64,000 nucleotides of DNA from Thermoanaerobaculia bacterium (GCA_963712855.1 CAVQJN010000001.1:742747-806746), one strand, 5' to 3'. Shown: positions 3,992 to 38,657, counted from the first letter of the stretch. Made by a program: numbers and translations. Notes: generated by a model from the sequence alone, not told the origin.

Positions 3992-5383
<1,392 letters not shown>

Positions 5384-13117: not shown

Positions 13118-15568
13118 GTGACTGCTCGCCTCCGGTCGGCCGTGCATTTTGCATCTGTTCGCCATGTTGTCGCACTCTTGGTTGCTGCAGCCTTCTGCGT
13201 GGTGCTCACTCCGCGGCCGCTCCGCGGACAGGATGGCCTGCCGCCCGGAACTCCGCCTGACATCCAGAAGATCATCGAGAAGGCGAAGAGCGGCCAAGTG
13301 CCGACGCCGCAAGAGACCCAGCGGCTCATGGAGTGGGAGAAGCAGCTGGCGCAGAAGATGGGGGACCCGTCGCGCTCGGCCCCTCCGGGCAAAGTCGACA
13401 CCCAGTATGCGCCCGCCTCGATCGCTCGCGACGGCATCCCCTGCCGCCTGGAAGCGACGATCCACTACACGTTGCAGGCACCCGACGCCGACACGGTGAC
13501 GGGCCAGGCGAGCGCGTGGGCCGACGGGATGATGTACGCGACGATCGATGGCACCGACGACTACGTCAATTCCTCGGCCGATCCCTCCTCGCACGTTTCG
13601 ATCATCCGGATCGAGCCCCTCGCCAAGAACGGGAAGGCCGTGCTCGGCGGCGGCGGCAGCTACACGATCGAATCGGCCCACGACCGCATCTCGGCGACCG
13701 TGAAGCGGGCGGTCGGGGGAACGGTGCTGGTCAGCAGCGGGCACGGCGACGCGCTCATGGACGTGACAGGCCCGGAGATGTTCGGCGTCGAGGCCGAGGG
13801 CACGGAGTGCGGTTCCCAGGGTTGTCAGCCTTACAAGCACGACACCAACGGTGACTTTCTGGACGTCGCCTTCCCCTTCGCGATGGAGAAGCACCTCGAG
13901 GACGAGAACCAGACGGGCATCGGCAAGCCGATGCCTCAGCCCCCGCTCGCCATCTCGCTCGACCGCCTGAAGGCCGCCATCCAGGCCGGCGGATCGCAGT
14001 CGGTGAGCGGTTCGGAGAACTTCTCCTGGAAGACCGAGTACGAGACGGTCAACGGCAACAGCACCCTGAAGATCACGCTACGGCCCTCGCCCCTCCGGCT
14101 TCTGATCGACGAGCCCCTCGAGTATCCGGAGTGGTCGCCGGTGCCGTCATCCGACGACCCGGCGATCACGCAGCTCTTCGGCAAGGGATCCCGCCTGACC
14201 TTCCACGTCCGGCTGGTCACGAAAGACGGCAAGGAATCGGTGGTCGACCAGCCGATCGACTTCTACCTCGACGAGGTCAGCCACCACAAGGGCATCTGCT
14301 CCAACTATCCGAAGAGGAACGCGGACGACAAGCCGGATCTCCGGTTCACGTCGCCGGACGACGGGGTCTTCAACCAGGCGATCGAGATCGACCCGAAGGA
14401 TCCGAACCACGCCTACCTCAAGGCGCCCGCGACCGAGGCCGACGTCACCATCGAGGCGACCGACACCGGCGCCTACGGCAAGTTCCGCGCCGAGGCGAAG
14501 ACCCTTGGCCTCCTGAGCCTGGACGAGCGCACGGGCGAGAACTTCGTGCGTATCCCGATGGACGACGACAAGAACCACATCGCCGACGGATGGGCGAAGC
14601 GGCGCGGGGTCATGAACCTGCCGCCGACCTGGGACGAGGACGCGGTGCCCGCCGAGATGCCGCGCAAGGGCGACAGCCTGACGCTCTACGAGGAGTATCG
14701 CGGATTCGTCGTCGCGGATCCCCTGACTCAAGAGCCGCACTGGACGCGCCTGGAGACCCAGCGGCGCAAGACGTTCGTCTACCCGAAGAACGGCCACGAG
14801 GACTGGATTCGGGAGGGAGCGCGTCTGTTCGAGACGGTGACCGGCATCCGGGTCTACTTCGTGCCCGGAGACGACTACGTGAAGCCCGATCCGGCGCTCG
14901 ACAACAACCTGAACTGGATCAATTTCAACTCCGACCTCGACGACGGCATCGACTTCGGCCCCAAGGTCGACATCATCCCGATCGTCAACACGCCCGGCTA
15001 CATCTCCGACGATCCCAAGAATCCCGGGGTGCACGTCAACGGCCGCACGATGGCCGCGGGCGACAAGTACGGCAAGGAAGTTCCCGACGGTCCGTGGCAG
15101 CTCGACGAGATCCAGATCTTCCCGCAGAAGATCACCGCCAGCATGAACGACGAGGAGAAGCTCTACAGCGACCTGGCGGCGGGACACGGGACGGCGCCGC
15201 ACACGAAGGTGAACCTGGGCTATTACGGCGCCACCTTCCACGATGTCGCGACCGACATCCAGAAGGACTTCGCCGACATGGTGCACGATCTCTACGTCTT
15301 CAGCACGATGCACGAGATGGGTCACGCGCTGGGCGCGCATCACCACGACGAGGACCACCCGGAGATCGGCCCGCTCACCTGCCCGATGACCTACTGGTCC
15401 GGAAGGCGCGCGAACCTGCCCTTCTTCCTCGTCCTGTTCCATCCCAGCCGGACGGCGTGGTCCCTTCCCCCCGCCCCCGGCTCGACCGACAGCACTCCCG
15501 GTCCCGGCAGCGCCGCTCCCTGGAAGTTCTGCGCCGCGAGCTGGCAGCAGATGAAGCTGAAGCCGTAG
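13118..15568 (+). CDS. Secreted metzincin-like zinc metalloprotease (HExxHxxGxxH)
   Basis: 816 aa with N-terminal signal peptide (VVALLVAAAFCVVLTPRPLRGQ) and a C-terminal region carrying HEMGHALGAHHHDEDHPEIGPLTCPMTYW, which fits the metzincin HExxHxxGxxH motif. The preceding ~600 aa have no recognised fold. Confidence 0.7.
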   Translation: MTARLRSAVHFASVRHVVALLVAAAFCVVLTPRPLRGQDGLPPGTPPDIQKIIEKAKSGQVPTPQETQRLMEWEKQLAQKMGDPSRSAPPGKVDTQYAPASIARDGIPCRLEATIHYTLQAPDADTVTGQASAWADGMMYATIDGTDDYVNSSADPSSHVSIIRIEPLAKNGKAVLGGGGSYTIESAHDRISATVKRAVGGTVLVSSGHGDALMDVTGPEMFGVEAEGTECGSQGCQPYKHDTNGDFLDVAFPFAMEKHLEDENQTGIGKPMPQPPLAISLDRLKAAIQAGGSQSVSGSENFSWKTEYETVNGNSTLKITLRPSPLRLLIDEPLEYPEWSPVPSSDDPAITQLFGKGSRLTFHVRLVTKDGKESVVDQPIDFYLDEVSHHKGICSNYPKRNADDKPDLRFTSPDDGVFNQAIEIDPKDPNHAYLKAPATEADVTIEATDTGAYGKFRAEAKTLGLLSLDERTGENFVRIPMDDDKNHIADGWAKRRGVMNLPPTWDEDAVPAEMPRKGDSLTLYEEYRGFVVADPLTQEPHWTRLETQRRKTFVYPKNGHEDWIREGARLFETVTGIRVYFVPGDDYVKPDPALDNNLNWINFNSDLDDGIDFGPKVDIIPIVNTPGYISDDPKNPGVHVNGRTMAAGDKYGKEVPDGPWQLDEIQIFPQKITASMNDEEKLYSDLAAGHGTAPHTKVNLGYYGATFHDVATDIQKDFADMVHDLYVFSTMHEMGHALGAHHHDEDHPEIGPLTCPMTYWSGRRANLPFFLVLFHPSRTAWSLPPAPGSTDSTPGPGSAAPWKFCAASWQQMKLKP

Positions 15569-15647
15569 GAGCCTCGAGGGCCGAGCGGCGGCATGGAAGC
15601 ACGACGCTCACCGTCGGAACACACGCCGCCGGACCGCCCATCGGCGG

Positions 15648-15953
15648 TCCGCTAGAGGCGAAAGGGTGCCAGGCGAATAGCTAGCTGGTCCCGGAGACAA
15701 ACCCCTCTTCGACCAGCTTCGCGGACGGCTTCGACGCCGGCGACGCGTGCAACTGGGAGACCCGGGTGCCCAATACGCCCTGCGCTAGCGAAAGGGTGCC
15801 AGGCGAATAGCAGGCGAAAGGGTGCCAGGCGAATAGCTAGCTGGTCCCGGAGACAAACCCCTCTTCGACCAACTTCGCGGACGGCTTCGACGCCGGCGAC
15901 GCGTGCAACTGGGAGACCCGGGTGCCCAATACGCCCGGAGTGAAAGGGTGCCA
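15648..15953. repeat. REP-like tandem repeat array (24-bp GCGAAAGGGTGCCAGGCGAATAGC motif x4, separated by two ~100-bp identical units)
   Basis: Motif at 15648, 15779, 15805 and 15930. The ~100-bp unit (tagctggtcccggagacaaac...gggtgcccaatacgccc) occurs at 15671-15770 and 15827-15926. The motif equals one terminal inverted repeat of the Y1-transposase element. Confidence 0.8.
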
Positions 15954-16140
15954 GGCGAATAGCTAGCCAAGCCCTTTGGGCATGGACGAATTCTCTCCTC
16001 TTGGGGGACCCACGTTGATCTCGTCCGTCTCGCGCAACGAGGCACATCGATCTCTAGGTACGGCCAAGGCGCCGAGAGACTCCTGACGGTCTCGAGAGCT
16101 CAACCTCGAAAGATCACACCCGCGCCCTTCCTGGGCCGCG
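15940..16140. repeat. 3'-end remnant (~200 bp) of a Y1-transposase element; second copy at 20980-21180
   Basis: Near-identical to 20980-21180, which is the 3' terminal region of the intact element copy 1. It is cut at ...ctgggccgcga by the IS3 insertion. Confidence 0.75.
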
Positions 16141-16205
16141 ATGACCTGCTCCCCGCAACTCGGCCCAGTGGGGAATGACACACTGGCCCGCGGAAGGGGT
16201 GAGCG

Positions 16206-16472
16206 ATGCGGAAGAGTCGGTACTCCGAGGAGCAGATCATTCGGGTGCTCCAGGAGGTCGAATCGGGCAAGACGGTTCGTGAGGTTTGCCGGGAGCATGG
16301 GATCGCGACCGGGACCTACTACGCCTGGAAGTCGAAGTTCGGCGGCATGGACGTCAACGAGGCGCGACGGCTCAAAGAGCTCGAGCTCGAGAATCGGCGT
16401 CTGAAGGCGGCGGTGGCGGACCTGACGCTCCGGGAGCAGGCACTGAAGGACGTGCTGTCAAGAAAATGGTGA
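16206..16472 (+). CDS. IS3-family transposase OrfA (HTH)
   Basis: 88 aa MRKSRYSEEQIIRVLQEVESGKTVREVCREHGI..YYAWKSKFGGMDVNEARRLKELE, typical IS3 OrfA with a leucine zipper. Confidence 0.85.
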   Translation: MRKSRYSEEQIIRVLQEVESGKTVREVCREHGIATGTYYAWKSKFGGMDVNEARRLKELELENRRLKAAVADLTLREQALKDVLSRKW

Positions 16473-17353
16473 CGCCCGCGGCCCGGCGTGCGGCGGTCCA
16501 TCTTCTCCGGGAGCGACACCAGCTGAGCGAGCGGAGTGCGTGTCGACTGATGAGCTACAGCCGCTCGTCGTACCGCCGCAAGAGTCTTCGCGCCGAGGCG
16601 GACAAGCCCCTGAGAGATCGCCTTCTGGCGCTTGCGTCGGAACGACCTCGCTACGGCTACCGCCGGTTGCACGTTTTCCTCGAGCGGGAGGGCTGGAGCA
16701 TCAACCGCAAGCGGGTCTACCGCGTGTATCGGGAGCTGGGCTTGGCCGTGCGGCGAAAGAAGCGCAAGCGCGTGGCTCAGGCGAATCGACAGCCCCGGGT
16801 CGTGCCGATCGCTCGTGACATTCAATGGTCGCTCGACTTCATGCGCGACACGCTGGCCAACGGCCGAGTCTTCCGCACGCTGAATGTCGTCGACGACGCC
16901 ACTCGGGAGTGCTTGGCGATCGAAGTCGACACCTCGCTCTCCGGTTATCGAGTCGGTCGCGTGCTGGACGCCGTAGCCCGCGAGCGAGGTCGCTACCCGA
17001 GCCGGATCGTCTTGGACAATGGCCCCGAGTGCACGAGCAAGGCGCTCGACCAGTGGGCCTACGATCACGGTGTCACGCTCGCCTTCATCCGCCCCGGGAA
17101 ACCGGTCGAGAACTGCTTCGTCGAGAGCTTCAACGGGAAGTTCCGCGACGAATGCCTCAACCTGCATTGGTTCCTCAGCCTGGCCGATGCGCGGCGCCGC
17201 ATCGAGGCTTGGCGCTTGGATTTCAACTTCGTCCGACCACACAGTAGCTTCGACGGCCGGCCCCCCGCCGTGGCGGCGCGCGAGGCGTGGCTCCACCCGG
17301 CTACGCCGGCTTCCGCCACGCCTCGACCAGGGGCTAGGTACCAGGGAAAATGA
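16466..17353 (+). CDS. IS3-family transposase OrfB (DDE integrase core), expressed by -1 frameshift from orfA
   Basis: rve domain: ...WSLDFMRDTL...RTLNVVDDATRECLAIEVD...DNGPECTSKAL...PGKPVENCFVESFNGKFRDECLN (D, D, E triad). Frame is -1 relative to orfA; the putative slippery region AAGAAAATGG lies near 16455-16470. Confidence 0.8.
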   Translation: MVTPAARRAAVHLLRERHQLSERSACRLMSYSRSSYRRKSLRAEADKPLRDRLLALASERPRYGYRRLHVFLEREGWSINRKRVYRVYRELGLAVRRKKRKRVAQANRQPRVVPIARDIQWSLDFMRDTLANGRVFRTLNVVDDATRECLAIEVDTSLSGYRVGRVLDAVARERGRYPSRIVLDNGPECTSKALDQWAYDHGVTLAFIRPGKPVENCFVESFNGKFRDECLNLHWFLSLADARRRIEAWRLDFNFVRPHSSFDGRPPAVAAREAWLHPATPASATPRPGARYQGK

Positions 17354-17400
17354 ATCGCGAGTGTCCAGTTGGTGGTGGTGTCAACCTGGGGAGCAGGTCA

Positions 17401-17470
17401 GGCCCACGACATTCTCAATAGACGGAATCCAACGCCCAGATTCCTCGCTATTCGGGTGGCACCTTTGTCG
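17401..17470. repeat. 5'-end remnant of the Y1-transposase element (tnp start plus terminal IR), abutting the IS3
   Basis: ggcccacgacattctcaatagacggaatccaacgcccagattcctcgctattcgggtggcacctttgtc is a diverged copy of 22140-22210 and 23070-23140 (tnp start codon region plus terminal repeat). Confidence 0.65.
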
Positions 17471-17694
17471 GGAGGTTACGCCATCCTCAAAATTCCACGG
17501 GATTCGGGACGGAACCTCCTCCCGAAGACACGCAGCTGCTTTCTGAGAGCAGAAGGAATGGAGAACATCATCAATCTATGTCACGAAGACATCCGAACGA
17601 GCAGGACGAGCACGGTCTTGGGTATTGCGGGTGTGCTCTCCATCTGCTCCGATCCATTGCTTGGAGTCCTCCGAACTCATACGTTGGTTAAGTC

Positions 17695-19602
17695 CTATTG
17701 CGAAGGAACCTTGATTCGCTCAACGGCCCAGTCTCCGCTCAGTAAGTCTTTGGCACCCACAGCCACATAGCCTCCCGCCAGCGGCATAGGAATCTCAATA
17801 TCTCGAACAAATAGAGGTCGCATCGCACTCCCCGCAGGTAGTGAGAGCTCGATGGTTTGCCCTCGTACCTGGGAGATGTCGCCATTCTTTGGAAGCAGCG
17901 CGATTTCTATGCGCAGCCGGCCAAGGAGGGTGTCTTTACTGGGCGACACGAGCGTGATCGCGGCCCGTTCGAAGCTTACGCGGACAGTCACTCGATCCTT
18001 GTTGCGATTGACTATAGATACCGACTCTCCGAGGCCGGGTCGACTCTTCTCGATGAAAAGAGAGGCTCGAACTCGCTGGGCTAAGAGTTGGTCATCGGGA
18101 GAGTCGCGCCAGCTTCTTCGGTAGAAGAGTCGGACACCCTTTCGAGTTGTCTCAAGTCGAAGTCTGTGGATGCGTGCATCGCCAAAATGGCGAGATTGAA
18201 AAGCTAGCAGGTATTCGCTCTGAAGGGACTCGTTGAGACCTCTGAGTGCAGGAATGAAGCTGTTGCGGTTGATGATGGCATGACCACCAGTCTCCTCTGC
18301 GAGGAAAGTGAACGGATCATTGAGATCAGCGCGAGTGCGGAATGCACCTTCAACTGTTTCGTTCCGTCCCTGGCTACTGGCGTCCGCGCCGGACGCGCTG
18401 AGTCCGTTGGCATCAAGTGTCCACACCGTTACGCCGTCAGAGTTTGCGGAGGCCGTTACCGCGTCGAGCATCGATGTGAGTTGAAGTCGTGCCTCATCCA
18501 GAGCGACAGCGTGCACATCGAGTCTGTCGGCAGAGGTGCGAGCGTTGTCTTCGGGCGGGACGGAGTACGGCACTCCTTGAAGGACACCGCTACCGTCGCA
18601 GAGAGCCCGGATGTATTCGTAAGCAGCGCGACCGGGATGCAGTGGGAATCCTTCGCTTACATAGAGTAACAGTCGGCGCCCGGGAAGGAGTGTCATGGAC
18701 GCGGCAAATGCCTGAAGTGCCTGAAGGGAGGCGATTGCATCTTCCCTTTGCTGACTGGCCAGGCCCTGCGCGATTTCGACCAAGCTACGGGGGCATGGAG
18801 TCTGAATCTTTGACTCAATAGCCTGACGTTGTTCTTGCATGATTAGGTCGAGAGCAGTCTGTTGCGCAGAGCGTCTGACCAATGCGGTGGTGCCGCCCAA
18901 TGCAATTTCTTCGAGTAGGTGGTCAACGTGAGAGCGATTCGTGCTGCGAGCTAGAAGAATCTGAAGAGAATGGTCGAACGACACCACCATCCACGCTGCG
19001 CGAGACGGTGGAAAGTCTCGCATCCACACGCGGAGCGCATCTATTACTAGTTGGCGCCGTCCAGGATCAAGGTAGGACATGTCGAGGAAGATCGCCACAG
19101 TAGGCGACGCGGTGCTCGTACCATGAGATTGGCTGCTAGAAGGCGGAGACGCAGAGGCAATCTCATCGCCGAGGTTCTCAGTGTGCCCGGCCGCCGGAGC
19201 TGTGAATCCATACAGCCCGCTGACAGGCTTTCCATCCTCGAAGAGCTGCAATTCTTCAGGACGAAGATCGTCTACCGGTCGTCCCTGTGAATCCTCCGCG
19301 AAGAGGTCGAGCTGGACTACATTTATGGTCACTTGGTCTGAGAACTGGGAGCTTGGCGTGAGACCTTGTGACGAGCCCGATGGCACGGCAAGAGCTGTCT
19401 GCGGAGGAATTGCGAGAAACGCGCCTATGACTATACGAATCCATCTAAACCCAAGTCTGTTTCGTATCGAGCCTGCTAGGTGAACAATGGCGACAAGGTG
19501 TGTGGCAATGCAGCCACCTTCTGGATGTCGCCGCAGGACGAGTGACGTCAGAGTAAGAGTGCATCGGCGCGCAGGAAATGCCTCCTGTCTCAGACTAGGC
19601 AC
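17695..19602 (-). CDS. Secreted VWA (von Willebrand factor A) domain protein
   Basis: Hydrophobic signal-like segment followed by a vWFA-like region (...VAIFLDMSYLD...GGTTAL...) and a C-terminal beta-rich region. Located in a lower-GC segment. The real start may be internal. Confidence 0.45.
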   Translation of the reverse strand: MPSLRQEAFPARRCTLTLTSLVLRRHPEGGCIATHLVAIVHLAGSIRNRLGFRWIRIVIGAFLAIPPQTALAVPSGSSQGLTPSSQFSDQVTINVVQLDLFAEDSQGRPVDDLRPEELQLFEDGKPVSGLYGFTAPAAGHTENLGDEIASASPPSSSQSHGTSTASPTVAIFLDMSYLDPGRRQLVIDALRVWMRDFPPSRAAWMVVSFDHSLQILLARSTNRSHVDHLLEEIALGGTTALVRRSAQQTALDLIMQEQRQAIESKIQTPCPRSLVEIAQGLASQQREDAIASLQALQAFAASMTLLPGRRLLLYVSEGFPLHPGRAAYEYIRALCDGSGVLQGVPYSVPPEDNARTSADRLDVHAVALDEARLQLTSMLDAVTASANSDGVTVWTLDANGLSASGADASSQGRNETVEGAFRTRADLNDPFTFLAEETGGHAIINRNSFIPALRGLNESLQSEYLLAFQSRHFGDARIHRLRLETTRKGVRLFYRRSWRDSPDDQLLAQRVRASLFIEKSRPGLGESVSIVNRNKDRVTVRVSFERAAITLVSPSKDTLLGRLRIEIALLPKNGDISQVRGQTIELSLPAGSAMRPLFVRDIEIPMPLAGGYVAVGAKDLLSGDWAVERIKVPSQ

Positions 19603-19951
19603 CGATACATACTACCTATGCATTCCTGCATTGAGCGACAATGAAAGCAACCTGTGCATCTTTCAGCCAAGAGCTGCTATTAGTCCTAGAGGAAAGCAAG
19701 CGTGCCGAGGCCAAAGATTGAAGGCCTCTAAAGAGGACTCGACGGCGTCTGTTGGTATCCATGGCTCGTCTGGGCCACGAGTACATGTCAGAGTCTTCAA
19801 CACCCGCGCACGACGAAGTGCGAAAAGCCGCGAGGGTCGTACTTGATAGAGGCGGAAACATGAGTCCTGACGGCTGCGGATCTGTCAAGACTGGCGCCAA
19901 ACGAAATTGAGGATGTGAGTACGGTCGCCAGCTAGACCGGAGGTATCGGTC

Positions 19952-20551
19952 TCATGGACAGACACACTCGCAATAGCAATTGATTAGGTCGATACAGTCA
20001 TTGAAGCAGCCTTGGCCCTTGCATGGAATGCAGCCTTGCCGGCAGATCGATAGCGTGCAGTCCGGCCCATCTTGCACCTGCGCATCGAAGTTCGACACGG
20101 GAGCTTGCGATGTATCGGACATGGCGAGTAGAGGCATGATGGAGCCCTGCTTGTCAGGGGAGCAGGCGGCTGCAGAAGTGGTAGGCGCCGTTTGCTGACT
20201 GGTTGGGTTGTCGAGCAAGAACGCCAGATTTGGCTGCGGTGGGCCAGAAGTCAAGGGCGTCATCGACGTTGAAGTATCGCTGGCGAGGCCGACAGAGGCA
20301 AAGACGAGCGCACTCGCGACTACGAAGCCGAGCGTCGCATGCTGTTTTATGGCAGGAGACTCCTCTAGACTAGGTTGATCTTGGACACTCTTCTGGAGAC
20401 GGGCCGCTGACATCCCCGTGAGAACAACTGCCCGCATGAGGTTGCCAGGGAATTGCGGCGCGACGATTCGTATCGGGCGGTCAGTGATCAGGGCAACCGG
20501 TCCGGGTATCCGATCTATCAGGTCAAGGAGGCTTGGCTGTGTGCAGCGCAA
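19952..20551 (-). CDS. Hypothetical protein with TM segment and Cys-rich C-terminus (10 Cys in the last 35 aa)
   Basis: ORF of 199 aa (likely start MRAVVLTG at 20437). Has a TM helix ATLGFVVASALVFASVGLA, a Ser/Thr/Pro-rich linker and a C-terminus CTLSICRQGCIPCKGQGCFNDCIDLINCYCECVCP. Low-GC context. Confidence 0.35.
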   Translation of the reverse strand: MRCTQPSLLDLIDRIPGPVALITDRPIRIVAPQFPGNLMRAVVLTGMSAARLQKSVQDQPSLEESPAIKQHATLGFVVASALVFASVGLASDTSTSMTPLTSGPPQPNLAFLLDNPTSQQTAPTTSAAACSPDKQGSIMPLLAMSDTSQAPVSNFDAQVQDGPDCTLSICRQGCIPCKGQGCFNDCIDLINCYCECVCP

Positions 20552-20743
20552 CGGTACGTCGTGTCGCGTGGGTTAGTTCGAATGCAGGGCGGCTCATAGG
20601 CATCGTCTCGACTGGAGAATACTCTTCTCTCGCGCTTCTGCAAGCTACTGACAGGTTCTGTCAGTGGGTGCCTCTTCGAGCATTCCGCTGAGCGATTTGT
20701 AGCGCAACAGGTTTCGAAAGAAGAGGTGGCCTGTGACCTGCTA

Positions 20744-20800
20744 CCCAGGTTGACACCACCACCAACTGGACACTCGCGATTCATTTTCCATGAGTCCCGG
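20744..20800 (-). mobile_element. Solo inverted copy of the IS3 terminal repeat (remnant)
   Basis: TGACCTGCTACCCAGGTTGACACCACCACCAACTGGACACTCGCGATTCATTTTCC is the reverse complement of IS3 right end 17345-17400 with one mismatch in the first 13 nt. Similarity decays after ~55 bp. Confidence 0.7.
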
Positions 20801-20974
20801 CCTCGGGTCGAGGTGCCGGAAGAGTGCCAGACGAATAGCGAATAGCAGTGGCTGCCTAGAGGGCGTGTGCCGGGCACCATCTGCAAACCATTACTGACCT
20901 TGGGCTTCTATGGAGGAGGAGCACGCCCATGCCTCTGTTCATGAGGCGAAGCAACCAAATTTGGTTCAGAGTAG

Positions 20975-22210
20975 CGAAAGGGTGCCAGGCGAATAGCTAG
21001 CCAAGCCCTTTCGGTATGGACGCATTCTCTCCTTTTGGGGGACCCACGTTGATCTCGTCCGTCTCGCGCAACGAGGCACATCGATCTCTAGGTACGGCCA
21101 AGGCGCCGAGAGACTCCTGACGGTCTCGAGAGCTCAACCTCGAAAGATCACACCCGCGCCCTTGCTGGGCCGCGACCCGCCTTGCTGCTGGCTCCGGACC
21201 TCTGTAGGCGAGCGAGTCTCTCTAGCTACGTCGCGGCCTGAACCCCGCGAAACGGCAAGGCCGGCGGGAAGCACCCTTGGGGAAATCCCACGTCGAGCTG
21301 ACCCGCGCGGAATCGCTCGGAGGAACGGCGGAAAGCCGCCAGGAAGGTCGCGTAGGCGTCGCGGACCTGCCTCCGAACCTGCCGCGAGTAGGCGTGGATC
21401 AGCGGAGCGGGCCCCTTCTTGATCCGGTTCGGCTCGAAGTGAGGATCCTGGCGCAGTACGAATGAACGGCCGGCAGCCGATCGCCCCGTCTCAGCCGCCT
21501 TCCGGGCGGTCTCCTGCTCGATGCCCTGGATCATCTCTGCGATTCGGCTCCGATACTGCTCGTCGTCGAGCCCGGCCCAACAGGGAATCGGGACGAGCTG
21601 GAGAGATTCCTCCTCGACCAGATCCCGCGGTTGGAGAGCGATCCCTTTGCGACTCGCCGTGTACTCGAGCGTATGGTTGATCCAACGACCGCGGACCGAC
21701 GATCCCGACAGGAGAAAGGGAGCCGCGTGGGCACCCGGCCATTCCTTGGGCGAGCGAACCAGGCCTTCCTTGGATCCGTGACCGAGGAGGTAATGCAAGC
21801 GTGCCACCTGGCTCGCTTCGTCGTCCGAGACGAGGATCGCCTGATACCTGCGTCCCCAGAACTTCTCGCGCCAGCGAATGAGCCGGCCCGCCTCACGGGC
21901 CAGATTCGAGTTGAGATAGCCCATGAAGGCGGCGAGGCGCTGTGCGTCGGGGACAGTGAGCAGAAGGTGGAAGTGATTGGAGAGAAAGGCGAAGGCATGA
22001 ACCCGCACCGGATAGAGGCGGGCTGCCCGTGCGAGAACGCCGAGCGTCAGGTCTCGGAGAATGGGGCTCGGCCGCAAGAGCAGACGCCCCTGAACCGTGC
22101 GACAGGTGACCTCGACGAGCGAGCCCGGCGGAACGAAGCGGATCCTTCGGCCCATGACACGCTCAACAGACGGAATCCAAGGCCCAGATTCCTCGCTAGT
22201 CGGGTGGCAC
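20975..22210 (-). mobile_element. Y1/HUH (IS200-like, COG1943/RAYT-like) transposase element, copy 1, with imperfect ~25-bp terminal inverted repeats
   Basis: Left terminus GCGAAAGGGTGCCAGGCGAATAGCTAGC versus right terminus (reverse complement) GAGAAAGGTGCCACCCGACTAGCG. It contains a single tnp gene, and the same termini recur as solo REP-like motifs. Confidence 0.65.
21226..22155 (-). CDS. Y1 HUH transposase (IS200/IS605-like TnpA domain with ~180-aa C-terminal extension)
   Basis: HUH motif SNHFHLLL, FMGYLNSNL, and catalytic-Tyr region KFWGRRYQAILV in the N-terminal ~130 aa. 309 aa in total. Confidence 0.7.
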   Translation of the reverse strand: MGRRIRFVPPGSLVEVTCRTVQGRLLLRPSPILRDLTLGVLARAARLYPVRVHAFAFLSNHFHLLLTVPDAQRLAAFMGYLNSNLAREAGRLIRWREKFWGRRYQAILVSDDEASQVARLHYLLGHGSKEGLVRSPKEWPGAHAAPFLLSGSSVRGRWINHTLEYTASRKGIALQPRDLVEEESLQLVPIPCWAGLDDEQYRSRIAEMIQGIEQETARKAAETGRSAAGRSFVLRQDPHFEPNRIKKGPAPLIHAYSRQVRRQVRDAYATFLAAFRRSSERFRAGQLDVGFPQGCFPPALPFRGVQAAT

Positions 22211-23066
22211 CTTTCTCTCCGAACCGCTCGGAGGAACGGCGGAAGGCCGCCAGGAAGGTCGCGTAGGCGTCGCGGAGCTGCCTCCGGACCTCCCGTGAGT
22301 GGGCGTGGATCAGCGGAGCCGGTCCCTTCTTGATCCGGTTCGGCTCGAAGTGAGGATCCTGGCGCAGTACGAATGAACGGCCGGCAACCGATCGCTTCGT
22401 CTCAGCCGCCTTGCGTGCGGCCTCCTGCTCGATTCCCTGGATCATCTCTGCGATTCGGCTCCGATACTGCTCGTCGTCGAGCCCGGCCCAACAGGGAATC
22501 GGGACGAGCTGGAGAGATTCCTCCTCGACCAGATCCCGCGGTTGGAGAGCGATCCCTTTGCGACTCGCCGTGTACTCGAGCGTATGGTTGATCCAACGAC
22601 CGCGGACCGACGATCCCGACAGGAGAAAGGGAGCCGCGTGGGCACCCGGCCATTCCTTGGGCGAGCGAACCAGGCCTTCCTTGGATCCGTGACCGAGGAG
22701 GTAATGCAAGCGTGCCACCTGGCTCGCTTCGTCGTCCGAGACGAGGATCGCCTGATACCTGCGTCCCCAGAACTTCTCGCGCCAGCGAATGAGCCGGCCC
22801 GCCTCACGGGCCAGGTTCGAGTTGAGATAGCCCATGAAGGCGGCGAGGCGCTGTGCGTCGGGGACGGTGAGCAGAAGGTGGAAGTGATTGGAGAGAAAGG
22901 CGAAGGCATGAACCCGCACCGGATAGAGGCGGGCTGCCCGTGCGAGAACGCCGAGCGTCAGGTCTCGGAGAATGGGGCTCGGCCGCAAGAGCAGACGCCC
23001 CTGAACCGTGCGACAGGTGACCTCGACGAGCGAGCCCGGCGGAACGAAGCGGATCCTTCGGCCCAT
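22047..23066 (-). CDS. Y1 HUH transposase, copy 2 (3' end replaced where copy 1 abuts; altered C-terminus)
   Basis: Protein identical to copy 1 over ~280 aa (one or two substitutions). Homology ends at 22211, where the 5' terminus of copy 1 begins, and the ORF reads on into copy 1 sequence. Confidence 0.6.
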   Translation of the reverse strand: MGRRIRFVPPGSLVEVTCRTVQGRLLLRPSPILRDLTLGVLARAARLYPVRVHAFAFLSNHFHLLLTVPDAQRLAAFMGYLNSNLAREAGRLIRWREKFWGRRYQAILVSDDEASQVARLHYLLGHGSKEGLVRSPKEWPGAHAAPFLLSGSSVRGRWINHTLEYTASRKGIALQPRDLVEEESLQLVPIPCWAGLDDEQYRSRIAEMIQGIEQEAARKAAETKRSVAGRSFVLRQDPHFEPNRIKKGPAPLIHAHSREVRRQLRDAYATFLAAFRRSSERFGEKGATRLARNLGLGFRLLSVSWAEGSASFRRARSSRSPVARFRGVCSCGRAPFSET

Positions 23067-23141
23067 GACACGCTCAACAGACGGAATCCAAGGCCCAGAT
23101 TCCTCGCTAGTCGGGTGGCACCTTTCTCCGGTGGTGGTCAA
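22211..23141 (-). mobile_element. Y1 transposase element copy 2 (3'-truncated, tandem to copy 1)
   Basis: Contains the same 5' terminus (22... ggtggcacctttctc at 23127-23141) and tnp gene. Its 3' ~90 bp and terminal repeat are missing. Confidence 0.6.
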
Positions 23142-24462
23142 CCAGCCGATCGACTTCTACCTCGACGAGGTCAGCCACCACAAGGGCATCTGCTCCAACT
23201 ACCCGAAGGGGAACGCGGACGACAAGCCGGATCTCCGGTTCACGTCGCCGGACGAAGGGGTCTTCAACCAGGCGATCGAGATCGACCCGAAAGATCCGAA
23301 CCACGCCTACCTCAAGGCGCCCGCGACCGAGGCCGACGTCACCATCGAGGCGACCGACACCGGCGCCTACGGCAAGTTCCGCGCCGAGGCGAAGACCCTG
23401 GGCCTCCTGAGCCTGGACGAGCGCACGGGCGAGAACTTCGTGCGCATCCCGATGGACGACGACAAGAATCACATCGCCGACGGATGGGCCAAGCGGCGCG
23501 GGGTCATGAACCTGCCGCCGACCTGGGACGAGGACGCGGCGCCCGCCGAGATGCCGCACAAGGGCGACAGCCTGACGCTCTACGAGGAATATCGCGGATT
23601 CGTCGTCGAGGATCCCCTGTCACAGCAAGCGCATTGGACGCGATTGGAAACCAAGCGTCGGAAGACCTTCGTTTATCCCAAGAACGGCCACGAGGACTGG
23701 ATCCGCGAAGGAGCGCGCCTGTTCGAGACGGTGACCGGCGTCCGCGTCTATTTCGTCCCGGGAGACGACTACGTGAAGCCCGACCCGGCGCTCGACAACG
23801 GGTTGAACTGGATCAACTTCAACTCGGACCTCAACGACGGCATCGACTTCGGTCCGAAAGTCGACATCATCCCCATCGTGAACACGCCCGGCTACGTCTC
23901 GGACGACCCGAAGCACCCGAAAGTCCACGTCTTCGGCCGCACCATGGCCGCGGGCGACAAGTACGGCGTGCAGGTCCCGGACGGCCCCTGGCAGCTCGAC
24001 GAGATCCAGATCTTTCCGCAGAAGATCACCGCCAGCATGAACGACGAGGAGAAGCTCTACAGCGATCTGGCGGCGGGACACGGGACGGCGCCGCACACCA
24101 AGGTGAACCTCGGTTACTACGGCGCCACCTTCCAGGACGTCGCGACCGACATCCAAAAGAACTTCGGCGCCATGGTGCACCAGCTCTATGTCTTCAGCAC
24201 GATGCACGAGATGGGACACGCCCTGGGCGCGCGCCACCACGACGAGGACCACCCGGAGATCGGCCCGCTCACCTGCCCGATGACCTACTGGTCGGGCCGC
24301 CGCGCCAACCTGCCTTTCTTCCTCGGGCGCTTCGACCCCGACAAGACCGCCTGGACCTTTCCCGCCTCCCCCGACGGATCCGACGACACCCCCGGCCCCG
24401 GCAACGCGTCCCCCTGGTCCTACTGCCAGACGAGCTGGAGCCAGATGAAGCTCAAGCCGTGA
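23141..24462 (+). pseudogene. 3' fragment of a paralogous metzincin-like protease gene, 5'-truncated by the Y1-element insertion
   Basis: Roughly 440 aa that are ~85-90% identical to residues ~375-816 of the 13118-15568 protein, including HEMGHALGARHHDEDHPEIGPLTCPMTYW. Homology starts exactly at the element boundary at 23141. Confidence 0.7.
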
Positions 24463-38381: not shown

Positions 38382-38657
38382 CTAGCCGAACCTTGCTCTT
38401 CCACCGAAGTAGTCCGCTTGAGGTATCCAATATGGAACAAGCCTAGGCGTTCTTCGCTTCTTACCTACTTCTCCCGTCCGATCAGACTGCCGGGAAGAGA
38501 CCGAACCTTTGACCTGCTCCCCGCAACTCGGACCAGTGGAAATCAACAACCCCACAAGATGGGCTCTTGAGCTTGCGAGATCGCCCCAAAGCGGTCGACC
38601 CCAAGTCTTCTGAGGGGTACATTAGAGGTATCCTCAGCCTGACGAGCCACAAGCCCT

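Follow-up and report, generated by a model that had tools for sequence, protein, structure and literature searches.

To our knowledge, all HUH/Y1 transposases studied so far (IS608, ISDra2, and TnpA_REP) read DNA hairpins, and we know of no test of the mode of action of those relatives that are associated with terminal inverted repeats (TIRs). In the REPtron, a RAYT/TnpA_REP gene is reportedly accompanied by repetitive extragenic palindromes (REPs) or REPINs, as is said to go back to Nunvar (2010), Bertels and Rainey (2011), and Ton-Hoang (2012), with structure 4ER8. RAYT-like genes that are flanked by terminal inverted repeats, and not by REPs, have been described as TIRYT genes forming TIRtron units (Di Nocera et al. 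2013, PMC3733652); their TIR families occur as singles, dimers, and clusters, and a GGGGWSAS motif is common to the majority of the published repeats (PMC3733652). Most TIRYTs have been assigned to subclass 2.1 within the TnpA-Y1 superfamily (Quentin et al. 2018, PMC6006769), in which a Y---NP tyrosine motif is common to all class 2 members and subclass 2.1 carries a C-terminal helix-turn-helix (HTH) tail of the Bac_DnaA_C, HTH_23, or HTH_28 type (PMC6006769). In this study, a 64-kb stretch of DNA from a Thermoanaerobaculia bacterium (GCA_963712855.1, CAVQJN010000001.1:742747-806746), referred to as the window, was analysed by repeat finding, pattern searches, and alignment; coordinates are positions of the whole window. 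A mobile unit of 1.24 kb is present in it in three copies (A, B, and C), one of them intact, and is cut up by an ordinary IS3 element. An initial annotation had read the region as a nested mosaic, with an IS3 element inside a Y1-transposase element, two further tandem Y1 copies, and REP-like solo termini. The feature is real and this reading is essentially right. The inverted repeats had been regarded as unusual for such an element; they are already known around RAYT-like genes (PMC3733652), and the present family differs from those known cases in its repeat core, its tyrosine motif, and its C-terminal region.

Terminal repeats and architecture of the unit

The 3'-type repeat, GAAAGGGTGCCAGGCGAATAGC (22 nt), is present in the window in five exact copies and one copy with 3 mismatches (0 expected, 100 shuffles), and the variant of the 5' end, GCTAKTCGGGTGGCACCTTT, which is inverted relative to GAAAGGGTGCCAGGCGAATAGC, in three copies (0 expected by chance). 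The window repeats read GAAAGGGTGCCAGG and GAGAAAGGTGCCACC. Imperfect terminal inverted repeats of ~25 bp had been proposed initially, and they were found, at ~22 bp, at both ends of the unit.

The same arrangement is seen in 80 metagenome loci encoding relatives of 50-76% identity, where inverted copies of AGGTGCCAGCCGATTC flank the gene, ~50 nt upstream and ~230 nt downstream. For most loci, an untargeted search for inverted repeats shared by the upstream 200 nt and the downstream 600 nt gave the core (A)GGTGCCA(N)CCG. When the pattern [AG]GTGCCAN[CG]C was counted over 81 loci, 205 matches were obtained vs 20 in shuffles; 72 copies are gene-oriented and lie 25-140 nt before the start, 62 are inverted and lie 150-460 nt after the gene, and both repeats are present in 30 of the 51 loci whose flanks are long enough. 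Over 40 repeat pairs, the two ends have the same consensus, AGGTGCCAGCCGATTC. Outside the invariant core, the repeats of one locus are more alike than those between loci (0.483 vs 0.408; 0 of 2000 permutations). The leader of ~35 nt from the 5' repeat to the start codon is also conserved (...CCGATTCTGCAAGAT...TTCCGTCTT...ATG), and in 40 of 48 loci 207-256 nt separate the stop codon from the 3' repeat, the corresponding spacer of the window being 20998-21225.

The 3' spacer has a constant length and a sequence that could not be aligned beyond close relatives. Excess structure was not found in the spacers of 48 loci (mean folding z -0.16 and -0.28), and Rfam gave no match at E<=1 within 15400-23400 of the window; a structured RNA in the element was therefore rejected. 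A small ORF (open reading frame) hidden in the spacer was rejected as well, since six-frame peptides matched only between near-identical DNA and did so in all frames. A sigma-70 promoter scan of 20900-23250 gave 0 matches, the scan being uninformative for this phylum.

Neither repeat has hairpin potential. As the initial annotation had advised, its 24-bp motif was checked for hairpins, with folding z values of +1.3 and +0.2 for the repeats (both strands, against shuffles), and the element ends likewise show no folding beyond that of shuffles (z -1.1 to +0.9). A repeat without folding ability is not a REP; therefore, a hairpin or REP nature was rejected for both repeats and both ends, on both strands. 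The solo and tandem copies that had been called REP-like do exist, at 15660, 15790, 15816, and 20818, but they are not REPs. A variant of the degenerate copy at 20818, GCCAGACGA, is also present in the relative L014. Among 185,579 representative genomes there is a single exact 21-nt match (L001:5617-5637, Serratia sp. L9 chromosome), which is isolated and has no nearby partner; it was treated as chance, with ~0.3 matches expected by estimate.

Across the relatives, extra repeat copies stand in one-sided arrays, gene-oriented upstream and inverted downstream, and the window array at 15660-15837 is of the same kind. Gene-less inverted doublets (~95-120 bp), which fold as long hairpins, occur at L014:1799-1892 and L025:1121-1240, and the 3' repeat of L017 (about 2654-2690) is a perfect palindrome, TGCCACCCGAGT-TGC-ACTCGGGTGGCA. 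These doublets and the palindromic repeat are derivatives resembling REPINs or MITEs (miniature inverted-repeat transposable elements). Repeats of the family can also sit inside coding regions, which is of importance for annotation: at L002:4646-4735, three repeat cores lie in frame inside a zinc-ribbon/FHA gene (4169-4900, minus strand), and they translate as NNSAGTLS-like repeats in a protein linker. Truncated outer-half repeats ending 0-3 nt after GGTGCCA adjoin many full repeats (Table 1). Strand cleavage or slippage may take place where such half-repeats end.

The encoded protein

The 309-aa product of copy B had been expected to be a RAYT-like protein of about twice RAYT size, and it scores 28.1 bits against the Pfam profile Y1_Tnp (cut-off 23), the profile whose absence had been named as an argument against that assignment. 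Against the NCBIfam model REP_Tyr_transpos (NF047646), it scores 44.2 bits, below the cut-off of 80. An AlphaFold (AF2) model built from 36 relatives has a predicted local distance difference test (pLDDT) score of 82.6 and a predicted template modelling (pTM) score of 0.84. In this model, the protein is shown with the TnpA_REP fold, with the HUH motif (H61 and H63) and Tyr122, and with a family-specific region (143-309) packed on the core. The HUH motif, the tyrosine, and 70+ further columns are invariant in the 36 relatives, the C-terminal half included. The tyrosine motif of the family is Y-[ILV]-L-[ASG]-[HQ]-G, some members having Gln at Y+4, and in an alignment to 4er8 the NP of the tyrosine motif is replaced by HG.

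Residues 143-309 have no Pfam match, no PDB sequence match, and no fold match. Modelled alone, they give a pTM of 0.42, which is much less confident; therefore, the region probably packs on the core. A profile of these residues finds 2700 cluster representatives at 50% identity, and among the full-length matches listed, the region sits at ~144-305 of ~310-aa proteins. A protein search returned 1784 matches named "RayT" or "transposase", the named sources being Thermoanaerobaculia and Acidobacteriota. The family is very large, conserved, and outside the published subclasses. As a consequence for annotation, genes are labelled "RayT" or "IS200-like transposase" though they fail the hallmark motifs of both.

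Comparison with known systems

The element is a TIRtron in every architectural respect, and the TIRtron/TIRYT is its closest published kind. A RAYT-like HUH/Y1 gene stands between terminal inverted repeats that are not REPs, and repeats occur away from the gene as singles, doublets, and arrays, both in the window and in the relatives. Core residues 40-142 align with TIRYTs (best gbm_2474 with 34.6 bits and aba_3477 with 33.6 bits), and of the two HuH forms given for subclass 2.1 the family has one, NH[FY]H (PMC6006769). However, the repeat core is AGGTGCCAGCCGATTC, and neither window repeat contains GGGG[AT][CG]A[CG]. The tyrosine motif is Y-x-L-[AS]-[HQ]-G and not the Y---NP of class 2; the motif following the core is WPGAH and not WSS; and instead of the DnaA_C/HTH tail of subclass 2.1 there is the 165-residue region without Pfam or PDB match. 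The protein has 309 aa, whereas the median TIRYT has 238, and the published TIRYTs of Acidobacteria have 168-188 aa and align only over the core, with <=34 bits. Since the family fails the GGGGWSAS, Y---NP, and HTH-tail hallmarks, it lies outside the published TIRYT groups.

The element also differs from the REPtron/RAYT, in that the repeat is non-palindromic with a consensus lacking the GTAG tag, the protein is below the cut-off of the RAYT model, and the complete unit has several copies here and lies in different flanks. RAYTs are characteristically single-copy and vertically inherited; in the present family, P0087, P0036, and P0094 have one fixed locus each, but the source genome has five or more copies or remnants and units are shared between different flanks. 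With IS200/IS605 (TnpA of IS608 and ISDra2), the element shares a Y1_Tnp match above the Pfam cut-off, the absence of target duplication, and a single small HUH/Y1 gene, as well as, in part, the Y---Q motif, through the Gln at Y+4 in some family members; it differs in having inverted repeats and no subterminal hairpins. IS200/IS605 elements have imperfect hairpins in subterminal position at either end and lack inverted repeats, and a dimer of their TnpA forms a single-stranded circle as the intermediate of transposition.

Mobility of the unit and alternative explanations

In the window, copies A, B, and C are similar as far as the outer edges of their repeats and no further, and the surroundings differ. 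Similarly, four groups of metagenome loci share only the unit from repeat to repeat (1170-1291 bp, 85-97% identity), with unrelated flanks on both sides. An origin of the three copies by segmental duplication was rejected, since their orientation and position with respect to the protease paralogues differ and the similarity stops at the repeats. At the level of sequence, these comparisons show that the unit is, or once was, mobile in its entirety. A duplicated flank was not seen by eye at the window copies or in the four groups of relatives (about 10 ends), which is consistent with HUH chemistry and speaks against a DDE enzyme. At least 5 copies or remnants of the unit, decayed ones included, are present in the source genome, three of them within the window; the same contig (1.66 Mb) encodes elsewhere P0001, a diverged intact copy (81% identical), and P0004, a truncated copy (94% identical).

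Several observations weigh against a mobile TIRtron. The identical proteins P0087, P0036, and P0094 each occur in one genomic context in 24 contigs from many samples, and a fixed locus of this kind, in three relatives, is more in keeping with a resident and possibly domesticated gene than with an active insertion sequence. An empty site was not found for any insertion. Within the 64-kb window, there are no repeat copies beyond 15660-23125, so that the window gives no sign of a dispersed repeat family in this genome. The repeat and the element ends lack hairpin potential, unlike all Y1 enzymes studied to date, and the TIRtron model does not account for the constant length of the 3' spacer. In the literature searched, two papers alone use the term TIRYT, and no activity is described for any TIR-associated Y1 protein.

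The first of these points is an argument for a domesticated RAYT-like gene, whose product would have ceased to move it, whose repeats would be binding or processing sites, like the REPs next to single-copy RAYTs, and whose three window copies would result from local duplication or recombination. The strong conservation of the whole protein is in favour of this explanation, and so is the resemblance of the solo, array, and intragenic repeats to REP behaviour. However, it appears unlikely, since copies A, B, and C have different neighbours with similarity ending exactly at the repeats, the four locus groups share only the 1.24-kb unit in unrelated flanks, and the number of copies and remnants, decayed ones included, is the profile of an insertion sequence; moreover, one locus in many samples may represent one widespread strain.

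It is very improbable that part of the layout, namely the B-C junction and the chimeric copy A, is due to mis-joins in a metagenome-assembled genome. The contig is of an uncultured type, 1.2-kb repeats at 95-98% identity are prone to mis-assembly, and the B-C junction lies inside an ORF; however, the copies are told apart by specific substitutions, with no collapse into one, the public annotation of the contig includes the fused ORF of copy C, and independent assemblies of relatives show the same unit, ends, and arrays. Finally, terminal inverted repeats of 20-25 bp are a hallmark of DDE elements and an active IS3-family element lies nearby, but it is scarcely credible that the repeats belong to a DDE-type transposon or a MITE system with the Y1 gene as a passenger, because the unit has no other conserved ORF, the repeats keep fixed distances to the gene across relatives of 50-76% identity and co-vary within loci, target duplication is absent at the about 10 inspected ends, and the IS3 ends (TGACCTGC...) are unrelated to the repeat.

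Proposed mode of action and its implications

The repeated unit is probably a TIRtron. It consists of a 5' repeat of ~22 nt, a leader of ~35 nt, one gene for a RAYT-like HUH/Y1 nuclease of single-stranded DNA, a spacer of ~230 nt, and a 3' repeat. The nuclease would recognise the AGGTGCCA core, and would cut and rejoin single-stranded DNA via a 5'-phosphotyrosine link formed by Tyr122. This model of recognition and cutting is drawn by analogy with TnpA of IS608 and TnpA_REP, and it is held with much less confidence than the TIRtron identity. Since the repeat does not fold on its own, recognition would need either paired repeats or sequence binding aided by the C-terminal region. In the first option, the two repeats would pair in single-stranded DNA to form a panhandle, whose stem would be read as TnpA_REP reads the REP stem; such pairing would come about readily in the short doublets and with more difficulty over a distance of 1.2 kb. 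In the second, the enzyme would bind the sequence directly, with the help of the C-terminal region, and nick opposite strands. One-ended or abortive events could leave solo ends, arrays, and truncated repeat copies. In the source genome, the unit has probably multiplied and was then probably rearranged by IS3 insertion together with deletion or recombination, and a further deletion probably joined copy C to copy B, with loss of the 5' half of a protease paralogue.

A more far-reaching possibility, which is put forward only tentatively, is that the relatives (2700 clusters at 50% identity) constitute an unclassified large family of HUH/Y1 insertion sequences that are autonomous and rely on true terminal inverted repeats and no hairpins. 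With the aid of the family-specific C-terminal region, the enzyme would then read the non-palindromic 16-nt core on opposite strands, or the ends paired as a panhandle, and the 1.24-kb unit would move without target duplication while shedding REP-like solo ends, doublets, and in-frame intragenic copies. If so, HUH transposition would here take a form for which there is as yet no biochemical description, and the family would link insertion sequences with REP/RAYT systems as a living intermediate. With one gene, a 16-nt core conserved in relatives of 50-76% identity, precise borders, and natural mini-derivatives, it is a clean test system. It also shows both single-copy and proliferating states, and it bears on the origin of REP/RAYT systems from insertion sequences.

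Layout of the window and probable rearrangement by the IS3 element

Table 1. Positions of the unit copies, the IS3 element, and the neighbouring features in the window, together with truncated repeats in the relatives.
Feature	Position	Strand	Details
Metzincin-like paralogue A, full	13118-15568		motif HEMGHALGAHH
Tandem array outside copy A	15656-15941	+	three extra exact 3'-type repeats: 15660-15681, 15790-15811, 15816-15837
Copy A, 3' segment	15939-16140	-	3' repeat 15942-15963 and 180 nt of 3' spacer
IS3-family element	16141-17400	+	1260 bp; inverted repeats TGACCTGCTCCCC at 16141-16153 and 17388-17400
IS3 ORFs	orfA 16206-16472; orfB about 16469-17353	+	
Copy A, 5' segment	17401-17469	-	start-codon region, leader, 5' repeat 17447-17469
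Solo IS3 right end	20737-~20816	-	inverted relative to the full IS3; 80 nt, 89%
Degenerate solo 3'-type repeat	20818-20839	+	GGAAGAGTGCCAGACGAATAGC, 3 mismatches; lies 158 nt beyond copy B, on its 3' side
Copy B, intact 1.24-kb unit	20973-22217	-	3' repeat 20976-20997; 3' spacer 20998-21225; gene 21226-22155 (309 aa)
Copy B, 5' part	leader 22156-22194; 5' repeat 22195-22217	-	
Copy C, 3'-truncated	22221-23128	-	5' repeat 23106-23128; aligns to copy B from 21310 onward
Metzincin-like paralogue B, 3' part	23131-24462	+	motif HEMGHALGARH; starts 2 bp beyond the outer end of copy C
Truncated tandem half-repeats (relatives)	L002 2938-2969; L035 5' flank; L040 and L045 3' flanks; L065, L068, L071, and L079 upstream		

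The two segments of copy A directly abut the IS3 element, and the gene is absent between them. The 3' segment (15939-16141) aligns with copy B (20973-21175) at 97% identity, and the 5' side (17401-17476) with copy B (22149-22224) at 82% and with copy C (23060-23135) at 88%. The initial annotation had placed a 200-bp 3' end and a 70-bp 5' end of a Y1 element beside the IS3, with the tnp gene lost between them; alignment with the intact ends, by which the two segments might have proved unrelated to the unit, bears this out. Outside copy A, a 156-bp unit that holds the extra repeats of the tandem array is duplicated at 99% identity, and the array starts (15656) directly after the terminator-like hairpin of the upstream gene.

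The interrupting element is a regular member of the IS3 family in having two overlapping ORFs, an HTH OrfA (HTH_Tnp_1), a DDE-core OrfB (rve/rve_3; 229 bits against NCBIfam transpos_IS3, NF033516, cut-off 160), a length of 1.26 kb, and ends of the TG...CA type (TGACCTGCTCCCC / GGGGAGCAGGTCA). Its TGACCTGC termini are reminiscent of the IS407 group. Its placement between Y1 ends and its inverted termini had been recognised initially, the length being 1260 bp and not 1258. A simple insertion of an IS3 element would carry a target-site duplication of 3-5 bp, and none is present at this copy (left flank ...GCCGCGA, right flank GGCCCAC...). Moreover, the positions in copy B that match the two IS3 flanks are separated by 973 bp, and the 3' and 5' halves of copy A diverge unequally from B (97% vs 82-88%). 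Therefore, although the IS3 lies within a Y1 element, as had been claimed, it did not arrive there by simple insertion. A simple insertion into a miniature gene-less derivative was also rejected, there being no target duplication. From the sequence, we infer either an insertion followed by IS3-mediated adjacent deletion or a recombination of two IS3 copies in different units. The nested IS3 mosaic as such is routine and represents standard insertion-sequence behaviour.

Copies B and C were both real, as annotated. Copy C is 98% identical to copy B over 907 nt, and it lacks 337 nt that are present in B, i.e. 85 nt of the ORF, the entire 3' spacer, and the 3' repeat, where a loss of only ~90 bp had been supposed. 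From the ATG at 23066, the ORF of copy C runs across the junction into copy B, giving a protein of 339 aa (P0121). The differences between B and C cluster in the last 210 nt of C (22221-22430 vs 21310-21520), the other 700 nt being nearly identical to B, and these last 210 nt carry substitutions of the distant copy P0004 (HAHSREVRRQL). Comparison of the copies points to copy C as a mosaic, or a product of gene conversion, between two element lineages.

The pair of copies has replaced the 5' half of a metzincin-like paralogue, as had been proposed: paralogue B can be aligned to paralogue A only from position 14240 of A onward. The two paralogues are large proteins of secreted type, 90% identical in protein. 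Their Pfam match to Reprolysin_5 (E 0.0011) is below the cut-off, and the protease assignment rests on the zinc motif.

The solo inverted IS3 end that had been located at 20744-20800 was recovered with wider limits (Table 1). The segment 17401-20736 is bracketed by two inward-facing IS3 right ends (17400 and 20737), and its G+C content is lower than that of the DNA nearby (55-59% vs 65-74%). It carries an Acidobacteria-type VWA-domain gene (17695-19602, minus strand; TIGR03436, 112 bits) and a Cys-rich ORF of 199 aa (19952-20551, minus strand). This segment may be cargo mobilised or inverted by IS3. A further IS3 remnant, 33 nt of a solo left end (TGACCTGCTCCCCGCAACTCGGACCAGTGG), is located in an intergenic gap at 38509-38541.

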